This document shows, in pieces, positions 1,809 through 61,808 of a DNA stretch of 64,000 bases. How positions within the stretch are numbered: the first letter of the stretch is position 1; each line of letters starts with the position of its first letter. The stretch comes from Rickettsiales bacterium (GTDB lineage Bacteria > Pseudomonadota > Alphaproteobacteria > Rickettsiales > UBA3002), in the NCBI GenBank assembly GCA_046154225.1, contig JBJXEM010000006.1, positions 46,124-110,123 on the forward strand, read 5' to 3'. Position numbers and translations under genes: made by a program. The notes below the pieces were generated by a model. The model saw only the letters and a program-made list of their open reading frames with translations. It was not told the origin of the DNA and searched no databases.

Positions 1809-3031
1809 GCGCCGCCTGGCAGTGGCAGGATGCCGCCTGCTTTCAATCCTGCAGCGCCTCTACACAACAGCGCGCTGCGCAATGGTTGGCCGATGCGCCT
1901 GCACTGCAACAAAAGCTCGTGGCACTCGCCGCCGAACAGCCGCTACTTCACACCGCAAGCGACGCCACGATGCTGCAGCACATAGTGCAGCATGCGGCAC
2001 AACTGGCGCAGCATAGTCAACAACTGGTGGTGGTGGGTACGGGCGGTGCATCGCTCGGCGCGCAGGCGCTGTGTGCGCTTTCGGCCGACCCCACGCGCGT
2101 GCGGTTTTTGGAGAATTGCGACCCGGAAACGGTCGCACGTTTTATGCAACTGCCTTGCGAGCACACCGCGTGGTTGATCATCAGTAAATCCGGCGAAACG
2201 GTGGAAACACTGGCCGCCGCCCTCAGCCTCATTGGTACGCACGGGCCAGCGCTTGCTTCGCGCCTGATGGTCATTACCGCCAACTCGGACAGCACGTTGG
2301 GCCAGCTTGCGAAGCAACAACATTGGCCTATTCTGACGCACCCCGCACGGCTGGGCGGGCGGTTTTCGGTGTTCTCGGTGGTGGGGCTTTTGCCGTGTGC
2401 CTATGCGGGCCTCGACATCATGGCCATCGCGCAGGCGGCGCAAAAAATGCTGCAACAATTGTTGCAGCAACCGGACGTTACCTTATGGCGCCACGCCAGC
2501 TGGATTGCGGCCACCATGGCAGAAAAACCGCAGCAATTATTGATGGCCTATGCCGACCGCCTGCGCCCAGCGACGCAATGGTGGAAGCAGCTTTGGGCCG
2601 AAAGCCTGGGCAAACAGGGCCGTGGCCAGACGCCCATTACCGCCATCGGGTCGATCGACCAACATAGCCAACTCCAGCTCTATCTCGACGGCCCGCACGA
2701 CAAATTGGTAACGCTGTGGCTGCCCGATGCGGCTGGCCACGGCCCGATTCTGCCGACGATGACACTGCCCGGCCTGCACTATCTTGGTGGCCACACCATG
2801 GGCGACGTGATGCAGGCGACGGCCGAAGCCACAGTGAAAACCCTCACCGCCACTGGGGTGCCATTGCGCGTGTTGCGCGGCGAATTAAGCCCCGCCAGCA
2901 TGGCCGAGTGGATGGTAGCGCGCATGCTCGAAACCCTCGCCGTGTCGGTCCTCATCGCGGTCGACCCCTTTTCGCAGCCAGCGGTGGAGGAGGGCAAAAA
3001 GCTGGCACGCGCGGCCCTTGGTGCGGCGTGA
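1805..3031 (+). CDS. pgi: glucose-6-phosphate isomerase (short SIS-type PGI, 408 aa)
   Basis: PGI signatures ISKSGETVET and GGRFSVFSVVGLLP. ATG 1805 overlaps the upstream stop (ATGA). Confidence 0.75.
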   Translation: MSAAWQWQDAACFQSCSASTQQRAAQWLADAPALQQKLVALAAEQPLLHTASDATMLQHIVQHAAQLAQHSQQLVVVGTGGASLGAQALCALSADPTRVRFLENCDPETVARFMQLPCEHTAWLIISKSGETVETLAAALSLIGTHGPALASRLMVITANSDSTLGQLAKQQHWPILTHPARLGGRFSVFSVVGLLPCAYAGLDIMAIAQAAQKMLQQLLQQPDVTLWRHASWIAATMAEKPQQLLMAYADRLRPATQWWKQLWAESLGKQGRGQTPITAIGSIDQHSQLQLYLDGPHDKLVTLWLPDAAGHGPILPTMTLPGLHYLGGHTMGDVMQATAEATVKTLTATGVPLRVLRGELSPASMAEWMVARMLETLAVSVLIAVDPFSQPAVEEGKKLARAALGAA

Positions 3032-4845
3032 CCATTCGCCGCCTACCGCAAACGCTGGTGAACCAGATTGCCGCCGGGGAAGTGATTGAGCGCCCGGCCT
3101 CGGTGGTGAAAGAACTGGTCGAGAACGCGATTGATGCGGGCGCGACCGACCTCGACATCGCGCTCGAGCAAGGCGGCGTGACCCTCATCCGCGTGCGCGA
3201 TAATGGGCGCGGTATGGGGCCGGGCGAGCTGCCCCTCGCCATCGAGCGCCACGCCACCTCGAAACTGCCCGACGACGATTTACTGGCGATTCACCATCTC
3301 GGTTTTCGCGGCGAAGCGCTTCCTTCCATTGGCTCCGTCGCGCGCCTGACACTCAGTAGCCGCGCCCGTGGGGCCGCCGAGGCATGGAGCCTGAGCGTGG
3401 AAGGCGGCCACGTGCAGCCGCTGATGCCCACCGCCATGAGCGAAGGCACGCTGGTGGAAGTGCGCGATTTATTTTACGCGGTGCCGGCGCGGCTGAAATT
3501 TTTGAAATCGTCGCGCAGCGAAATCAATGCGGTCGTCGACATCATCGAGCGGCTCGCCATGGCTCACCCCGACATTCGCTTTCGCTTGAGCCACGATGGC
3601 CGCGCGTTGCGCGACTTTCCAGCCCTCACCCGCGATTTTTTAAGTGCGGGGCCCGAACGGCTGGAGAAAATCATCGGGCACGGATTCGCCGCCAATATCG
3701 CTAGCATCGACATGGAGCGCGAGGGCATTCGCCTGACGGGCTTTGCGGGCCTGCCCACGTTTCACCGCGCCACCTCGCAGTCGCAATATCTGTTCGTCAA
3801 CCGCCGCCCGGTGCGCGACCGGCTGCTGCTCGGCGTCATTCGCGCGGCCTATCAGGATTACCTCGCGCGCGACCGCCACCCCGTCGCCGTATTGTTTTTG
3901 GAAGTGCCGGGCGAGCAGGTGGATGTGAATGTCCACCCCGCTAAATCCGAAGTGCGGTTTCGCGATGCGAATGTGGTGCGCGGCCTGATGATCACCGCCC
4001 TGCGCCATGCCATTGGTGCCACCGCCCAGCGCGCGAGCACCACGGTGGCCGATGCGGCGCTGCAGGCGTTTCGCAGTGAGGGTTTAGGGTCTAGGGTTTG
4101 GGGTATAGAAAATGGCGTGCGGCCCCAAGTACTTTCCAATTCAACAACAGAATTTGCTGCACCGAATGCTGCATTGTGGCGTGGTGAACAATTGCCACCG
4201 CAGCATCGTTCTGCTGAGTCAAAATCATCGCACACTAACCCCTATACCCTAAACCCTAGCCCCTCATTCCCCCTCGGCGCTGCCGTCGCGCAGTTGCACC
4301 ACACCTACATTGTGGCACAAACCGCCGATGGGCTCGTCATCGTCGATCAACACGCGGCGCATGAACGGCTGATGTACGAGAAATTCAAGGCCGAACTGGC
4401 GGGCGAAGGAGTGCCGCGCCAAATGCTGCTGCTGCCTGAAGTGGTGGAGTTGAACGAGGCCGAAGCGCACCGCCTGCTTTCGCGGGCGGAGGAATGGGCG
4501 AAGCTGGGGCTGCTGCTGGAGCCATTCGGCGAGCGCACCGTGCTGGTGCGTGAAGTGCCCAGCATGTTTGGGGATGGCGACATTGCAGGGCTGGTGCGCG
4601 ACCTCGCCGAAGAAGTAAGCCTCTATGCCGAAGGCCTTGCGCTGGCCGATAAACTTGAAGCCATTTTAAGCCGCATGGCCTGCCATGGCAGCGTGCGCGC
4701 CGGGCGGGTCCTGAACCTCAACGAAATGAACGCCCTGCTGCGGCAGATGGAAGCGACGCCCTTCAGTGGCCAATGCAACCACGGACGGCCGACTTACGTT
4801 TCGCTCGCGAAGGCGGATGTCGAAAAGCTGTTTGGGCGGCGATGA
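3028..4845 (+). CDS. mutL: DNA mismatch repair protein MutL (605 aa) carrying a repeat-derived in-frame segment in the linker
   Basis: GHKL ATPase N-terminus (VNQIAAGEVIERPASVVKELVENAIDAG, DNGRGM). C-terminal endonuclease/dimerisation motifs (DQHAAHERLMYE, ACHGSVRAG). GTG 3028 overlaps the pgi stop (GTGA). The 2716 start in the track is frame read-through inside pgi. Confidence 0.9.
   Translation: MTIRRLPQTLVNQIAAGEVIERPASVVKELVENAIDAGATDLDIALEQGGVTLIRVRDNGRGMGPGELPLAIERHATSKLPDDDLLAIHHLGFRGEALPSIGSVARLTLSSRARGAAEAWSLSVEGGHVQPLMPTAMSEGTLVEVRDLFYAVPARLKFLKSSRSEINAVVDIIERLAMAHPDIRFRLSHDGRALRDFPALTRDFLSAGPERLEKIIGHGFAANIASIDMEREGIRLTGFAGLPTFHRATSQSQYLFVNRRPVRDRLLLGVIRAAYQDYLARDRHPVAVLFLEVPGEQVDVNVHPAKSEVRFRDANVVRGLMITALRHAIGATAQRASTTVADAALQAFRSEGLGSRVWGIENGVRPQVLSNSTTEFAAPNAALWRGEQLPPQHRSAESKSSHTNPYTLNPSPSFPLGAAVAQLHHTYIVAQTADGLVIVDQHAAHERLMYEKFKAELAGEGVPRQMLLLPEVVELNEAEAHRLLSRAEEWAKLGLLLEPFGERTVLVREVPSMFGDGDIAGLVRDLAEEVSLYAEGLALADKLEAILSRMACHGSVRAGRVLNLNEMNALLRQMEATPFSGQCNHGRPTYVSLAKADVEKLFGRR
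4080..4264. repeat. heptamer-array palindromic element (GGGTNTA units) located inside the mutL reading frame
   Basis: Left arm GGGTTTAGGGTCTAGGGTTTGGGGTATAG (4080-4108). Right arm TAACCCCTATACCCTAAACCCTAGCCCC (4236-4264), the inverse orientation of the same unit. Same arm type as the intergenic copy at 20128-20208. Boundaries are good to a few nt. Confidence 0.8.
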
Positions 4846-5668: not shown

Positions 5669-7339
5669 TCAATGCCGAAAATGCCTCGTACACGTCATCA
5701 GCATGGCGATGCCGTGTTTCTTGGCAGCCGCGATGACTTCGGCGTCGCGCACTGAGCCGCCGGGCTGGATGAGGAGGGTGATGCCGGCAGCAGCGGCGAG
5801 CTCCACATTGTCGGCGAAGGGGAAAAATGCATCCGATGCTAAGGTCGCGCCGCGCGGGTCGTGCCCATGCTGGCGGGCTTTTTCGATGGCGATGCGCACG
5901 GAATCGACGCGCGACATTTGCCCGGCGCCAACGCCGATGGTGGCGCCGTTTTTCACCAGCACAATGGCGTTGGATTTGACGAATTTGACCACATGCCAGG
6001 CGAGGGCGGCATCGGCCATGGCGCTGGGATTAAGGGGGCCGCCGCTGGCTTGCGTCCATGCGCTGGCGGGGGTGGAAGTGCGGTCTTGCTGCTGTACCAA
6101 ATACCCACCGCTGATGGCCTGAATCATCCACCCAGCTAATGGCGAAGCGTGGGTTTCAGGCTGGCACACGAGCAGGCGCAGGTTCTTTTTTGCGGCCAGT
6201 TTTTCGCGCGCTTCGGCGGTGAATTCCGGCGCGACGATGACTTCTAAAAACAAACTGCCAATGGCCTCGACTAGTGCCACATCCACCGGTTGGTTGACGG
6301 CAAGGATACCGCCGAAGGCGCTGACGGGGTCGGACGCTAGGGCTTTGATGAAGGCGTCCACGGCTTTCGCGGCGATGGCAACGCCGCACGGATTTGCATG
6401 TTTAATCAGCACGGCGATAGCAGTTTCGTTAGCGACAGCATAACTGCTGGCAATCGCCCACGCCGCATTGGCATCGGCGAGGTTGTTGTAGCTGAGTTCC
6501 TTGCCTTGCAGCTGCTGCGCGTTTGCGATGCCGCCTTTGGCATCGAGCCGGTTGTACAGGGCGGCCGACTGATGCGGGTTCTCGCCGTAGCGCAGGGGTT
6601 GGCCGAGTGCGGCGTCGAGCAAGTAGGCGGGGAAGACTCCTCCCCCCATCGGGGGGAGGTTGGGCCTGCCGTCCGAAGCCTTGGCGTAGGATGGTGGGGG
6701 GCTGCCATGAGGCGCAGAGCTTGGTTCAGCCCCCCACCTAGCCCCCCCCCGATGGGGGGAGGAATTACCGAGCCAACTACTAATCAGTGTGTCGTAGCTG
6801 GCGCAGCGGGCGAAGGCTTTGGCGGCGAATTTTTTGCGTTCGGTGAGGGGGACAGCACCGCCATTTTGCTGCAGCAATTGTTGCAGCATTTCGTAGTCGG
6901 CGACATCGACCACGACGGTGACAGATTCATGGTTTTTGGCGGCCGCGCGAATCATGGCGGGGCCACCGATATCGATGTTTTCGACCAAATGGTCGTAGTC
7001 GGTGGTGGCGTTCAGGGTGGTTTCGAACGGGTAGAGATTCACCACCAGTAAATCGATCATGCCGATATTGTGGGCGTTCGCAGATTGCATATGCGAGGGC
7101 TCGCTGCGCCGTGCCAGCAACCCGCCATGGATGGCGGGGTGCAGGGTTTTTACGCGCCCGTCCATCATCTCGGGGAACTGCGTCACCTCCGCCACATCGC
7201 GCACGGGGATGCCTGCTTCCGCGAGGGTTTTAGCGGTGCCGCCGGTGGAAAGCAGTTCGATGCCTTGTGCCACCAGAAAATGCGCAAACGGAATCAGCCC
7301 GGTTTTGTCGGAGACGGAAAGAAGCGCGCGGCGGATCAT
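5669..7339 (-). CDS. purH: bifunctional AICAR formyltransferase / IMP cyclohydrolase PurH (556 aa) with a repeat-derived in-frame insertion in the interdomain linker
   Basis: N-terminal MGS-like domain (ALLSVSDKTGL, MDGRVKTLHP). AICARFT domain (LRYGENPHQ, KHANPCG, GAGQMSRVDS, C-terminal MTCTRHFRH). An extra segment of about 43 aa (NSSPHRGGARWGAEPSS...PPMGGG) lies between ISSWLG and VFPAYL. Confidence 0.92.
   Translation of the reverse strand: MIRRALLSVSDKTGLIPFAHFLVAQGIELLSTGGTAKTLAEAGIPVRDVAEVTQFPEMMDGRVKTLHPAIHGGLLARRSEPSHMQSANAHNIGMIDLLVVNLYPFETTLNATTDYDHLVENIDIGGPAMIRAAAKNHESVTVVVDVADYEMLQQLLQQNGGAVPLTERKKFAAKAFARCASYDTLISSWLGNSSPHRGGARWGAEPSSAPHGSPPPSYAKASDGRPNLPPMGGGVFPAYLLDAALGQPLRYGENPHQSAALYNRLDAKGGIANAQQLQGKELSYNNLADANAAWAIASSYAVANETAIAVLIKHANPCGVAIAAKAVDAFIKALASDPVSAFGGILAVNQPVDVALVEAIGSLFLEVIVAPEFTAEAREKLAAKKNLRLLVCQPETHASPLAGWMIQAISGGYLVQQQDRTSTPASAWTQASGGPLNPSAMADAALAWHVVKFVKSNAIVLVKNGATIGVGAGQMSRVDSVRIAIEKARQHGHDPRGATLASDAFFPFADNVELAAAAGITLLIQPGGSVRDAEVIAAAKKHGIAMLMTCTRHFRH
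6639..6762. repeat. G/C-hairpin-bounded palindromic element inside purH
   Basis: Terminal near-palindromes CCTCCCCCCATCGGGGGGAGG (6639-6659) and CCCCCCCCCGATGGGGGGAGG (6742-6762). Internal 11-bp stem GTGGGGGGCTG/CAGCCCCCCAC. Boundaries are approximate. Confidence 0.75.
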
Positions 7340-20127: not shown

Positions 20128-20208
20128 TAGGGTATAGGGTTTAGGGTATAGGGTATAGAGAAGAAACGTAGCTTCCCCTAGACCCTAAACCCTAAACCCT
20201 ATACCCTG
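20128..20208. repeat. heptamer-array hairpin (TAGGGTA/TAGGGTT units) filling the hemW / ORF283 divergent intergenic region
   Basis: Left arm TAGGGTATAGGGTTTAGGGTATAGGGTATAG. About 19-nt loop. Right arm CTAGACCCTAAACCCTAAACCCTATACCCTG. Confidence 0.9.
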
Positions 20209-21956: not shown

Positions 21957-21981
21957 ATATATGTACTCCGGTTTGGGTCAA

Positions 21982-22127
21982 CGTCATTGCGAGGCTTGCA
22001 CCTGCATTTCAACCTACTCAAAGATGAAAGGCCGAAGCAATCCAGCTGCTACGCGGCGTTGAAAATGGATTGCCACGGCCTTTCATCGCAGTGCAAGCGG
22101 AGGGCGTATGCATGCCTCGCAATGACG
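21982..22127. repeat. MITE-like nested palindromic element, 146 bp, CGTCATTGCGAGGC termini
   Basis: 14-bp terminal inverted repeats CGTCATTGCGAGGC / GCCTCGCAATGACG. Inner inverted repeat AAGCAATCCA...TGGATTGC. No ORF. Confidence 0.85.
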
Positions 22128-22183
22128 ATGTGGTGAGATTAGTACTTCCCCAGAAAGCTGCAAGTGCCATGTTCGCAAAATAC

Positions 22184-22741: not shown

Positions 22742-22753
22742 AGCGTTTTACTG

Positions 22754-22820
22754 TGAGTGGTGAGTGGTGGGTAGTGAGTGGTTCAGCGTCACTACTCACT
22801 ACCCACTACTCACCACTCAC
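22754..22820. repeat. heptamer-array hairpin (GTGAGTG/GTGGGTA units) between rluB and rsmD, overlapping the rluB stop
   Basis: Left arm GTGAGTGGTGAGTGGTGGGTAGTGAGTGG. Loop TTCAGCGTC. Right arm ACTACTCACTACCCACTACTCACCACTCAC. The last four codons and the stop of rluB (VSGE*) lie in the right arm. Confidence 0.9.
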
Positions 22821-24769: not shown

Positions 24770-24788
24770 GCCATCAGCTTAGCCGGAT

Positions 24789-24862
24789 CGTCATTCCAGC
24801 GAAAGCTGGAATCCAACTTTTTATTGGCGATGGAATGGATTCCAGCTTTCGCTGGAATGACG
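24789..24862. repeat. MITE-like palindromic element, 74 bp, GTCATTCCAGCGAAAGCTGGAATCC arms
   Basis: Perfect inverted arms CGTCATTCCAGCGAAAGCTGGAATCC / GGATTCCAGCTTTCGCTGGAATGACG. Each arm is itself a hairpin. Confidence 0.9.
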
Positions 24863-24886
24863 AGCGCGAAATGGGTATGCTCAAAT

Positions 24887-24910
24887 CACCACTCACCACT
24901 CACCACTCAC
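24887..24910. repeat. solo heptamer array (CACCACT units) 6 nt upstream of motA
   Basis: CACCACTCACCACTCACCACTCAC is the reverse complement of the GTGAGTG-type arm. There is no partner arm nearby. Confidence 0.8.
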
Positions 24911-36750: not shown

Positions 36751-36774
36751 AGAGTCGAGAGTCGAGAGTCGAGT
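36751..36774. repeat. tandem heptamer array (AGAGTCG x3) between ssrA and sspB
   Basis: AGAGTCGAGAGTCGAGAGTCGAG read directly from the sequence. Confidence 0.85.
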
Positions 36775-36784
36775 GAAATTAACT

Positions 36785-37260
36785 AAAGTGTTTCAAGTGC
36801 CACCCGGGAGGCGACCGCCGACCCGCGAAAAATCATCCTACGCTAAAGCTACGGACGACGCTCCTTCGCCTAAGGCCGCCTTCGACCGGCGTAAGCCGTC
36901 CGAAGCCGGAGGCGAAGGGCGGTGGGGGGATTCTGTTGCCCAGCTCCCCCCGGGCTGCGTTTACGAGCTAGAGCTCGTCAAGCCACACTAAGCGGCGAGA
37001 CGGGCTGCTACGACGTTGTTGTCGTTAGCTGCAACGAGTGCTACGTTGTCGTTGGCACTTGAAAAGTGATCCGATTATGGGAGATCACCCCAAGCAAAAG
37101 CAGCGCCTTTATTGCGGTTGTCGATGCTAATTCACCCCCACAAAGCCACCGCGTTGCGGTGGCTTTGTGGAGGTGCCGGGCTCTGCCCCCGGGTCCAATC
37201 CGACTATTCCACGATACGTTTATTGCTATAGCCACTTGCGTGACAGTTCTAAATATAAGG
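36785..37260 (-). ncRNA. ssrA: tmRNA (ssrA), circularly permuted two-piece gene: acceptor piece - spacer hairpin - coding piece
   Basis: On the minus strand, ...GGAC-CCGGG-GGCAGAG-CCCGG-CACCUCC-A ends at 37168. A 27-nt hairpin follows at 37141-37167. GGGGGUGAAUUAGCAUCGAC starts at 37139. GGGGGUG pairs with CACCUCC and gives a G3:U pair. The tag frame 37056-36988 reads ANDNVALVAANDNNVVAARLAA*. The outer ends are approximate. Confidence 0.8.
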
Positions 37261-37382
37261 CAAAACGGCCGCGGGTTCAAGCCGCAACTGCGGTCAAAAA
37301 TCGACAATCCGACACGCAACCTTCACGCAACCGTCATCAAACTGTCACATCTGTTTGGTAGGGTGAAGGCTAGGAGAAACCC

Positions 37383-43925: not shown

Positions 43926-43985
43926 TGGCGAGGTCTTCTTGCACGTAGGATGAAGCGATTTAATACAGGCTTAAACCTTAAATTT

Positions 43986-44050
43986 GTCATTCCCGCGAAG
44001 GCGGGAATCCACTTTTTTCTTTAGGAGATTCCCGCCTTCGCGGGAATGAC
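43986..44050. repeat. MITE-like palindromic element, 65 bp, GTCATTCCCGCGAAGGCGGGAATCC arms
   Basis: GTCATTCCCGCGAAGGCGGGAATCC ... GATTCCCGCCTTCGCGGGAATGAC. Each arm is a hairpin. Confidence 0.9.
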
Positions 44051-44092
44051 AACATGGATAGGTTGCTGCCAACAGAATAGACAGGGGGAATT

Positions 44093-61716: not shown

Positions 61717-61720
61717 GACA

Positions 61721-61808
61721 GGATTCAGCATTCAGCATTCAGCATTCAGCACGAAGCCGCGCGAGCCTATTCTTGAGCCCTCAATCCCGAATCCCAAATC
61801 CCGAATCC
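61721..61808. repeat. paired heptamer arrays (ATTCAGC x4 and AATCCCG/AATCCCA x4) between mreC and mreD
   Basis: GGATTCAGCATTCAGCATTCAGCATTCAGC ... CAATCCCGAATCCCAAATCCCGAATCC. The arms are only about 60% complementary and share a GATTC core. The element ends 2 nt before the mreD ATG. Confidence 0.85.

Follow-up and report, generated by a model that had tools for sequence, protein, structure and literature searches.

Heptamers are the commonest long-unit simple sequence repeats (SSRs) in prokaryotes, a predominance that is possibly due to polymerase slippage (summarised in PMC4679880). Those described by Rehm et al. (2015) have the units GGGAATC in Xanthomonas and GGGGA(C/T)T in Nostoc, show a preference for four units and, in a Xanthomonas genome, make up 70-75 inverted pairs in convergent orientation (PMC4692102). 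Such heptameric SSRs are transcribed and mostly situated between co-directional open reading frames (ORFs) near stop codons, with 7-11% being intragenic, and between species their position is kept in 83% and the repeat type is preserved (PMC4692102). In this paper we examine a pair of heptamer arrays inside the mismatch-repair gene mutL of an uncultured alphaproteobacterium, located in a stretch of DNA of 64 kb (G+C 58.6%) that is referred to as the window in the following. Our literature search found no description of these heptamer repeats in alphaproteobacteria.

From its sequence characters we assign the mutL feature, two convergent heptanucleotide SSR arrays of four units each, to the class of repeats of the GGGNATC type or short tandemly repeated repetitive (STRR) type of Xanthomonas and Nostoc. 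Common to these and the present arrays are the 7-nt unit, a number of about four units, dispersed occurrence with most copies near stop codons between co-directional ORFs, convergent pairs and a minority of intragenic copies; position and single or paired type are likewise conserved between related genomes while length is variable, and in one of the related loci (L082) the unit, read as GGGGATT / CCCCAAT, is identical to that of Nostoc. The element type is thus already known from other phyla. The present repeats differ, however, in their host, an uncultured alphaproteobacterial clade, in the many unit families and the turnover of units at a fixed site, and in that the mutL pair brackets ~110-160 nt of conserved coding sequence which is read in frame. 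The novelty lies in the host being an alphaproteobacterium, in the number of unit families and in a convergent pair that brackets conserved mutL coding sequence in frame at a site conserved throughout the clade.

The closest analogue of the within-gene pattern is found in cyanobacteria. There, STRR heptamers lie within the gene for RNase P RNA, as Vioque is said to have described in 1997; they reportedly lengthen helix P12 and are dispensable for activity, and unrelated heptamers reportedly occupy the same position of this gene in closely related strains. The fixed site, the changing unit and the paired arms are shared with mutL; there, however, the arms lie in an RNA gene and extend a pre-existing helix, whereas mutL adds the constraints of reading frame and stop codons as well as a long coding loop. 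Rickettsia palindromic elements (RPEs) are similar in being repeat-derived DNA in frame at permissive sites of housekeeping genes (PMC10969869), but they are contiguous elements of ~150 bp with a family consensus and a conserved peptide, whereas in mutL only the two 28-bp arrays are repeat DNA. The 6-bp repeat in mutL of Salmonella and E. coli (Chen et al. 2010, PMC2955026) is comparable as a slippage-prone repeat in mutL which could alter mismatch-repair capacity. Its in-frame hexamer changes lie in the ATPase region and have a demonstrated phenotype (PMC2955026), whereas the potentially frame-shifting heptamers of the window are situated in the linker, and an off allele at the heptamers was not found among the loci and orthologues considered below. 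Finally, repetitive extragenic palindromic (REP) sequences and bacterial interspersed mosaic elements (BIMEs) resemble the intergenic copies of the window, which are found in operon gaps (mreB-mreC-mreD) as strong stem-loops that would be transcribed; unlike them, the window repeats show neither a fixed palindrome nor a conserved head in the copies compared, and their stems consist of tandem heptamers.

The paired arrays and the native core of the mutL linker

The MutL protein of the window is a 100% match to MFM9889255.1 (NCBI protein) from a metagenome-assembled genome (MAG) labelled 'Rickettsiales bacterium', a label that is doubtful, since the nearest GTDB species representatives among the matches listed are Stellaceae, Reyranella and Dongiaceae, with MutL identities of 58-59%. 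The array segment follows the Pfam domain DNA_mis_repair (residues 213-329), precedes MutL_C (420-561) and translates without a stop from G352 to S413. It begins with four G-rich units and ends with four C-rich ones (Table 1), the right array being the inverted complement of the left, and the encoded peptides, GLGSRVWGI and TNPYTLNPSP, represent ~10 Gly/Ser/Arg/Trp-rich residues on the left and ~10 Pro/Asn/Thr-rich residues on the right. A two-unit pattern, GGGTNTAGGGTNTA, has 12 matches with at most one mismatch in the 64-kb window, only at 4080-4263 and in an intergenic pair of arrays at 20130-20206; in shuffled sequence the mean is 0.08 and the maximum 1. At both loci Tandem Repeats Finder reports a period of 7 with 3.4-4.6 copies, and it extends the mutL arrays to 4079-4108 and 4235-4264.

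The two arms can pair over a long distance (Table 1), and the score of this 23-nt pairing was reached by none of 200 shuffles of the mutL linker. Inverted-repeat scores range from 15 to 23 in array-bearing MutL linkers as opposed to 7-12 in 25 alphaproteobacterial linkers without arrays. When 4060-4285 is folded, the arrays pair with each other under RNA parameters (-91.4 kcal/mol, z -5.15) as well as under DNA parameters (z -2.89), and the left arm, GGGTTTAGGGTCTAGGGTTTGGGG, conforms to the canonical four-tract G-quadruplex (G4) motif. Coordinates, stop-free translation and shuffle statistics hence agree with the preliminary description of this locus, which had reported inverted GGGTNTA arrays in frame between the MutL domains. 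The similarity to the intergenic copy that it had proposed also stands on comparison with 20130-20206, in the form of a shared heptamer unit family, and for the arrays themselves so does the idea of lineage-specific repeat DNA.

What lies between the arrays, by contrast, belongs to the host gene. The linker motif FAAPxxxLWxGxxLPPQHR is conserved in an alignment of 31 orthologues (68-80% identity), array-free ones included, with L383 and W384 invariant and P391, Q392, H393 and R394 nearly so, and it is also present in more distant clade members without any trace of repeats. All 31 orthologues comprise 589-649 aa, and the MutL of the window is therefore not unusually long. From QRAS to PLGAA the linker measures 70-73 residues in repeat-free orthologues and 86 in the window; the extra sequence consequently amounts to about 13-20 residues, and not to the 62 or so of the preliminary description, repeat-free orthologues having a homologous linker that is only 13-16 residues shorter. 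Outgroup MutLs (up to 59% identity, among the matches listed) do not possess the LW..PPQHR core and carry a GLAE..FQAP motif. The clade-specific core (FAAP..LW.G..LPPQHR) is strongly conserved; at the corresponding place distant alphaproteobacteria have GLAE..(F/Y)QAP.

These comparisons bear directly on the view of the preliminary description that a single palindromic element of ~185 bp had been inserted as a block, in the manner of an RPE. Such a mobile element would account for inverted termini which match the type of another copy in the window and for the reading frame being open throughout. Its interior (~128 bp), however, contains no repeat family but the native linker motif at 4150-4209, which array-free orthologues have as well, and orthologues combine the same interior with different arms. 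The intergenic copy, in turn, shares nothing with the mutL arrays beyond the heptamer units, its loop of ~21 nt being unrelated to the mutL interior. The native interior and the sharing of arms only lead us to two 28-bp arrays flanking host sequence instead of a 185-bp insertion, and block insertion of one element is hardly credible. The arrays occupy the two unconstrained parts of the linker that flank its native core. What persists of the comparison with RPEs is the in-frame tolerance of repeat DNA at a permissive site within the host ORF (linker pLDDT <50), while the architecture of the element does not agree.

An AlphaFold (AF2) model from a shallow alignment gives pLDDT values below 50 over residues 334-446, where secondary structure is confined to four residues at the LW motif. 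The model is of low confidence overall (mean pLDDT 56) and was taken for linker disorder only; in this respect it is consistent with an interdomain linker that is disordered and tolerant. The endonuclease and clamp motifs of MutL (DQHAAHER, ACHGSVRAG, CNHGRPT, QMLLLP) are intact. The suggested partial impairment of MutL is not indicated, given these motifs and the wide occurrence of the arrangement in the clade, and the best reading is that of an intact protein whose flexible linker has probably become longer without loss of function.

Fixed sites and changing units in related genomes

DNA was read for 12 further mutL loci of the clade, i.e. 13 with the window. A metagenome scan with a linker alignment placed three of 80 loci in the clade, and the remainder provided the array-free background for the inverted-repeat scores. 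In the relatives the arrays are located directly after a conserved 'AF' and directly before '[FY]PLGAA'. Significant complementary arms, whose score no more than 2 of 200 shuffles attain, are present in eight of the 13 clade loci and enclose loops of 108-158 nt; 6-7 different heptamer units are distributed over these eight (Table 1). The conservation of position under variable length and sequence thus applies to the mutL flanks in eight lineages, and it likewise applies to the mreC-mreD gap of the window and L170. On a tree calculated from the domains only, array-bearing sequences are scattered and unit families switch between close neighbours; the peptides at the array sites of other lineages are unrelated (RVESRVS/DSRLSTL, QVPGSGFR/LEPGTRNLKP and others). 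A test of arm complementarity by peptide back-translation in 114 orthologues has low power (background 16-19 of 21, positives 20-21) and suggests no more than roughly that arms are frequent in the closer orthologues. RNAalifold, applied to a MAFFT alignment of eight linkers, pairs the arrays with an unfavourable covariation term, because different units cannot align column by column, and was not used as evidence.

How rapidly the flanks may be replaced is illustrated by L164 (10001-11794) and L168 (346-2190), which are 96-100% identical along mutL and nearly identical in the core but wholly different in both linker flanks. The former carries a perfect (ATTCAGG)x4 array. At the place of this array L168 has a GC-rich segment (GFIERDLVPHAALP..ASGS..GLRT), which recurs in the orthologues P0019, P0033, P0036, P0051 and P0064. 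A comparable replacement is seen in the mreC-mreD gap, where the window and L170 (MreC 90% identical) have a GAATCCC-like right arm in common but differ in the left one, with (CAGCATT)x3-4 in the former and (AGAGTTC)x4 in the latter; the same gap of L171 has no arrays. Sweeps of the slippage type are visible in the mreC-mreD left arms and in the L164 array, slippage itself being the putative cause.

Traces of selection are found within the arrays of mutL. A GGGTTTA array contains TAG once per unit, which falls in frame in every third unit. In the left array of the window the unit concerned is GGGTTTG, so that TGG (Trp358) is read at the sole in-frame TAG position, and the same change from TAG to TGG has occurred in L169, L083 and L082; in the right array the in-frame unit reads TAT, not TAA or TAG. 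Between the window and L169 the arrays are identical at 50 of 56 nt and the spacers at 36 of 68 (Fisher p = 1e-5), with 52 of 60 in the core, against a baseline of 75% identity for the whole of mutL and 49% at four-fold degenerate sites. The arms are thus under some constraint, which most likely concerns the stem and not the peptide, given that the corresponding sites of other lineages code for unrelated peptides.

Table 1. Features of the mutL locus, further heptamer arrays of the window (positions refer to the window) and repeat units in the mutL linkers of related loci
Feature	Position	Strand	Sequence, identity or basis
mutL CDS, endonuclease-type MutL, 605 aa, GTG start	3028-4845	+	ORF/translation; Pfam HATPase_c_3, DNA_mis_repair, MutL_C
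Left G-rich array, 4 units, encodes G352-I360	4080-4107	+	GGGTTTA GGGTCTA GGGTTTG GGGTATA
Unconstrained linker spacer	4108-4149	+	20/42 nt identity to L169
Native conserved linker core, EFAAPNAALWRGEQLPPQHR; loop of the long-range stem, not repeat DNA	4150-4209	+	Conserved in orthologues with and without arrays; 52/60 nt identity to L169
Second unconstrained linker spacer	4210-4235	+	16/26 nt identity to L169
Right C-rich array, 4 inverted units, encodes T403-P412	4236-4263	+	TAACCCC TATACCC TAAACCC TAGCCCC
Long-range stem, 4086-4108 with 4242-4264, 23 nt, 2 mismatches, 133-nt loop	4086-4264	+	Pairing search and folding
GGGTNTA hairpin, 4+4 units, ~21-nt loop, nearly fills 93-nt gap between HemN-like radical-SAM gene (-) and unannotated ORF (+)	20130-20206		RNA fold z -7.83
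GTGAGTG-family hairpin between pseudouridine synthase and methyltransferase genes (both -), overlaps stop codon of upstream gene	22753-22820		z -8.78
Single unpartnered TCACCAC array	24886-24910		Tandem Repeats Finder
Single AGAGTCG array between sspB start and tmRNA	36751-36773		Tandem Repeats Finder
GTGGGTG-family hairpin, mreB-mreC gap, begins at mreB stop codon	60774-60843		z -7.46
Heptamer pair, mreC-mreD gap, CAGCATT x4 ... AATCCCG x4, arms no longer complementary	61719-61808		z -0.05
L081 mutL linker arrays			AGAGTCG / CGACTCT
L082 mutL linker arrays			GGGATTG / CCCCAAT
L083 and L169 mutL linker arrays			GGGGTTA
L084 mutL linker arrays			GGGTCAG
L165 mutL linker arrays			AGTCGTG / CTCACGA
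L167 mutL linker arrays			CAGGTTC / CTGGAAC
L164, L168 mutL linker			One arm each
L166 mutL linker			Decayed array remnants
L085, L093 mutL linker			No arrays

Heptamer arrays and other repeats in the window and the clade

Arrays with a period of 7 are frequent beyond mutL. The window contains 11 of them, i.e. 17 per 100 kb, and the clade loci have 10 per 100 kb, as compared to 1.06 per 100 kb in other alphaproteobacteria (1.5 Mb, 80 mutL loci); the density in the window is thus ~16 times that of other alphaproteobacterial mutL loci, and the same comparison revealed no enrichment of periods 5 and 6. With respect to the 64-kb window and the clade loci, the arrays are consequently both dispersed and over-represented. 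The period-7 calls of Tandem Repeats Finder in the window consist of the two mutL arrays and 10 further ones, and the window arrays have 3.3-4.7 copies of the 7-nt unit. Five of the seven array loci in the window are convergent inverted pairs with the G-rich arm at the 5' side; the paired intergenic ones occupy gaps between genes, and three of these fold as near-perfect hairpins. The GGGNATC consensus with intact G3 tracts is not present: GGGTNTA retains G3 with a different tail, and the families GTGAGTG, AGAGTCG, CAGCATT, AGTCGTG and CAGGTTC have no G3 at all. Beyond the heptamer units the copies share no fixed sequence of the kind that would define REP sequences or REP doublets forming hairpins (REPINs).

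Repeats of this type also enter a second protein gene. In L165 a heptamer hairpin lies in frame in the interdomain linker of PurH, and a second heptamer pair brackets a conserved WKxVxG stretch of the same gene. AGTCGTG units are common to mutL and purH of L165, just as GGGTNTA is found at two loci of the window. The PurH of the window (purH 5669-7339, minus strand) has 556 aa, compared to 514-522 aa in six orthologues, the extra sequence being an in-frame interdomain-linker insert of ~39 residues, PHRGGARWGAEPSSAPHGSPPPSYAKASDGRPNLPPMGGG (6620-6781). This insert is bounded by poly-C/poly-G hairpin arms (TCCTCCCCCCATCGGGGGG..., 6638-6664 and 6737-6763) and represents a second, different type of palindromic repeat, at the linker position that corresponds to the heptamer hairpin of L165.

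Several other repeats were observed alongside the heptamers. A third family in the window comprises perfect palindromes with arms of 26-28 nt at 24788-24863, 43984-44052 and possibly 21979-22130 (T(C/T)GTCATTCC.GCGAA.GC.GGAAT...), which we take to resemble the small REP-like repeats giving rise to spurious peptides of the 'VIPAKAGIQ' type in other proteobacteria. In the mreB-mreC gap of L170 (1-178) and L171 (470-610), unrelated GC-rich palindromes (GGGGG..CCCCC and GCGCCTTAAGGCGC hairpins) stand in place of the heptamer hairpin of the window, so that the class of repeat found at one intergenic site varies from genome to genome. In L082 (997-1026), the space between the Rieske and cytochrome b genes is taken up by a direct (CTGGAGA)x4 array that has no inverted counterpart; each unit of this array contains GGAG, and it may overlap the ribosome-binding site. 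A single intergenic (AAACCCT)x3, with the unit of the GGGTTTA family of the window, occurs at 14662-14687 of L049, a distant alphaproteobacterial MAG whose MutL is 51% identical. (GGGTNTA)n was furthermore encountered in 57 viral contigs (L172-L228), many of them giant-virus MAGs and often in long runs; these were judged irrelevant, being probably the plant-type telomere repeat TTTAGGG and not the bacterial element. Next to sspB and the AGAGTCG array at 36751-36773 lies a two-piece (permuted) alphaproteobacterial tmRNA gene (36921-37284, minus strand; RF01849, 196.7 bits), and the Rfam scan of the window yielded this tmRNA only.

Maintenance of the arrays and possible roles

The explanation towards which we lean, though by no means strongly, is that of a self-maintaining, stem-forming SSR pair which is tolerated in the disordered linker. 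On this view the arrays are transcribed and translated in frame, which lengthens the linker, and the arms can pair as a stem of 23-32 bp, looping out ~110-160 nt of coding sequence. Replication slippage would give rise to new units and spread them through an array, whereas the complementarity of the arms and the sharing of units between loci could result from template switching or ectopic conversion, and selection at the level of the gene would purge in-frame stops and 7-nt frameshifts. According to Monttinen and Loytynoja (2022, PMC8794818), hairpin stems can be generated as well as mended by template switching. For the origin and maintenance of the arrays we infer slippage, combined with template switching or ectopic conversion which would act from arm to arm and from locus to locus. 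Several points weigh against this explanation. The presence of the same unit at different loci needs inter-locus transfer, for which slippage alone is insufficient and a dedicated mobilising activity that moves units between loci is possible. The arms in the mreC-mreD gap have drifted apart, so that arm-to-arm correction is not universal. The lasting complementarity in mutL may thus reflect selection for a function, and the conservation of the arrays could in principle come from selection on the peptide. In addition, the strict GGGNATC consensus of the class is not attained, several unit families having no G-tracts.

Alternatively, the arrays could form a functional cis-acting structure in mutL mRNA or DNA, either the stem or, in G3 lineages, a G-quadruplex, which tunes the expression of MutL; it might do so through RNase III cleavage of the 23-32 bp duplex, through a pause of the ribosome between domains or through a REP-like effect on mRNA stability. 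The arms being as conserved as the core and far more so than the spacers, the complementarity kept at the same two sites in eight lineages despite different units, the strong fold and the G4 motif of the left arm would all fit, the more so as related repeats are G4-forming in vitro and transcribed (PMC4692102). Loss of at least one arm has nonetheless occurred in five of the 13 clade loci, numerous orthologues were without arms from the outset, and MutL shows no other change in these cases. The AGAGTCG, AGTCGTG and CAGGTTC lineages are devoid of G-tracts, and given several unit families without G3 the G4 cannot be the common denominator. Stem mismatches show no sense-strand G-U bias (6 G-U as against 4 of the A-C type, an uninformative count). 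On balance we regard such a structure as unlikely, albeit worth serious consideration. Selection of GLGSRVWGI and TNPYTLNPSP as linker modules of the protein, with the symmetry of the DNA being incidental, appears very improbable. MutL function does depend on linker length and flexibility, and the two peptides are conserved across the window, P0002 and P0003; but unrelated peptides occupy the same sites in other lineages, and the only common property of the arms is their reverse complementarity and the 7-nt periodicity of the DNA.

The same doubt applies, to a lesser degree, to a contingency switch, in which a gain or loss of 7 nt or an inversion between the arms would shift the frame of mutL, truncate the protein before its C-terminal endonuclease and dimerisation domain and produce a reversible mutator subpopulation. 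The repeat unit within the ORF is indeed not a multiple of three, adding or removing 7 nt in one or the other arm, or inverting the interior, always brings a stop within or shortly behind the arrays in simulation (residues 357-412), the arrays slip on an evolutionary time scale, and repeat-mediated on/off switching of mutL is known in Salmonella (PMC2955026). One cluster of orthologues, moreover, contains the intact P0281 (633 aa) along with two split alleles (P0258 with P0282, P0280 with P0279), in which a poly-C run of the linker is the site of a +1 and a -1 shift, respectively, and in another cluster the alleles P0284 and P0286 diverge from P0283 inside the right heptamer array. The split alleles, however, are located at the homopolymer of a different, GC-rich linker repeat, and all of these split or truncated alleles (P0258/P0282, P0280/P0279, P0284, P0286) may stem from errors of sequencing or assembly (Logan assemblies), so that they keep the switch under discussion but lend it no strong support. 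The heptamer arrays are in frame in all 13 DNA loci and in all 120 orthologues listed, and neither these nor a search with the N-terminal 350 residues of MutL yielded an allele differing by one heptamer; an inverted interior was likewise not seen in the loci and orthologues examined. Four units are a short tract for efficient slippage, and the selective removal of the in-frame stop argues for a gene that is kept on. A mutator switch is thus improbable, and we give similarly little credence to the broader proposition that the paired arrays are a selected device of the whole clade, a 7-nt-slipping long-range stem which sets the dosage of MutL or reversibly turns off mismatch repair. If that were true, mutation rate would be a heritable, tunable trait, and the split or truncated linker alleles of metagenomes would be its off states.

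With these observations a little-studied class of stem-forming heptameric SSRs, known from Xanthomonas and cyanobacteria, is now found in an uncultured clade of alphaproteobacteria too. They also show that a heptamer pair can flank conserved coding sequence and loop it out without disturbing the reading frame. With two fixed positions, at least six units, repaired stop codons and near-identical strains that differ only in the flanks, the mutL site constitutes a natural experiment in which the effects of slippage, template switching and stem selection can be told apart. Should the stem or slippage by 7 nt affect the output of MutL, the dynamics of the repeats would be tied directly to the control of mutation rate.

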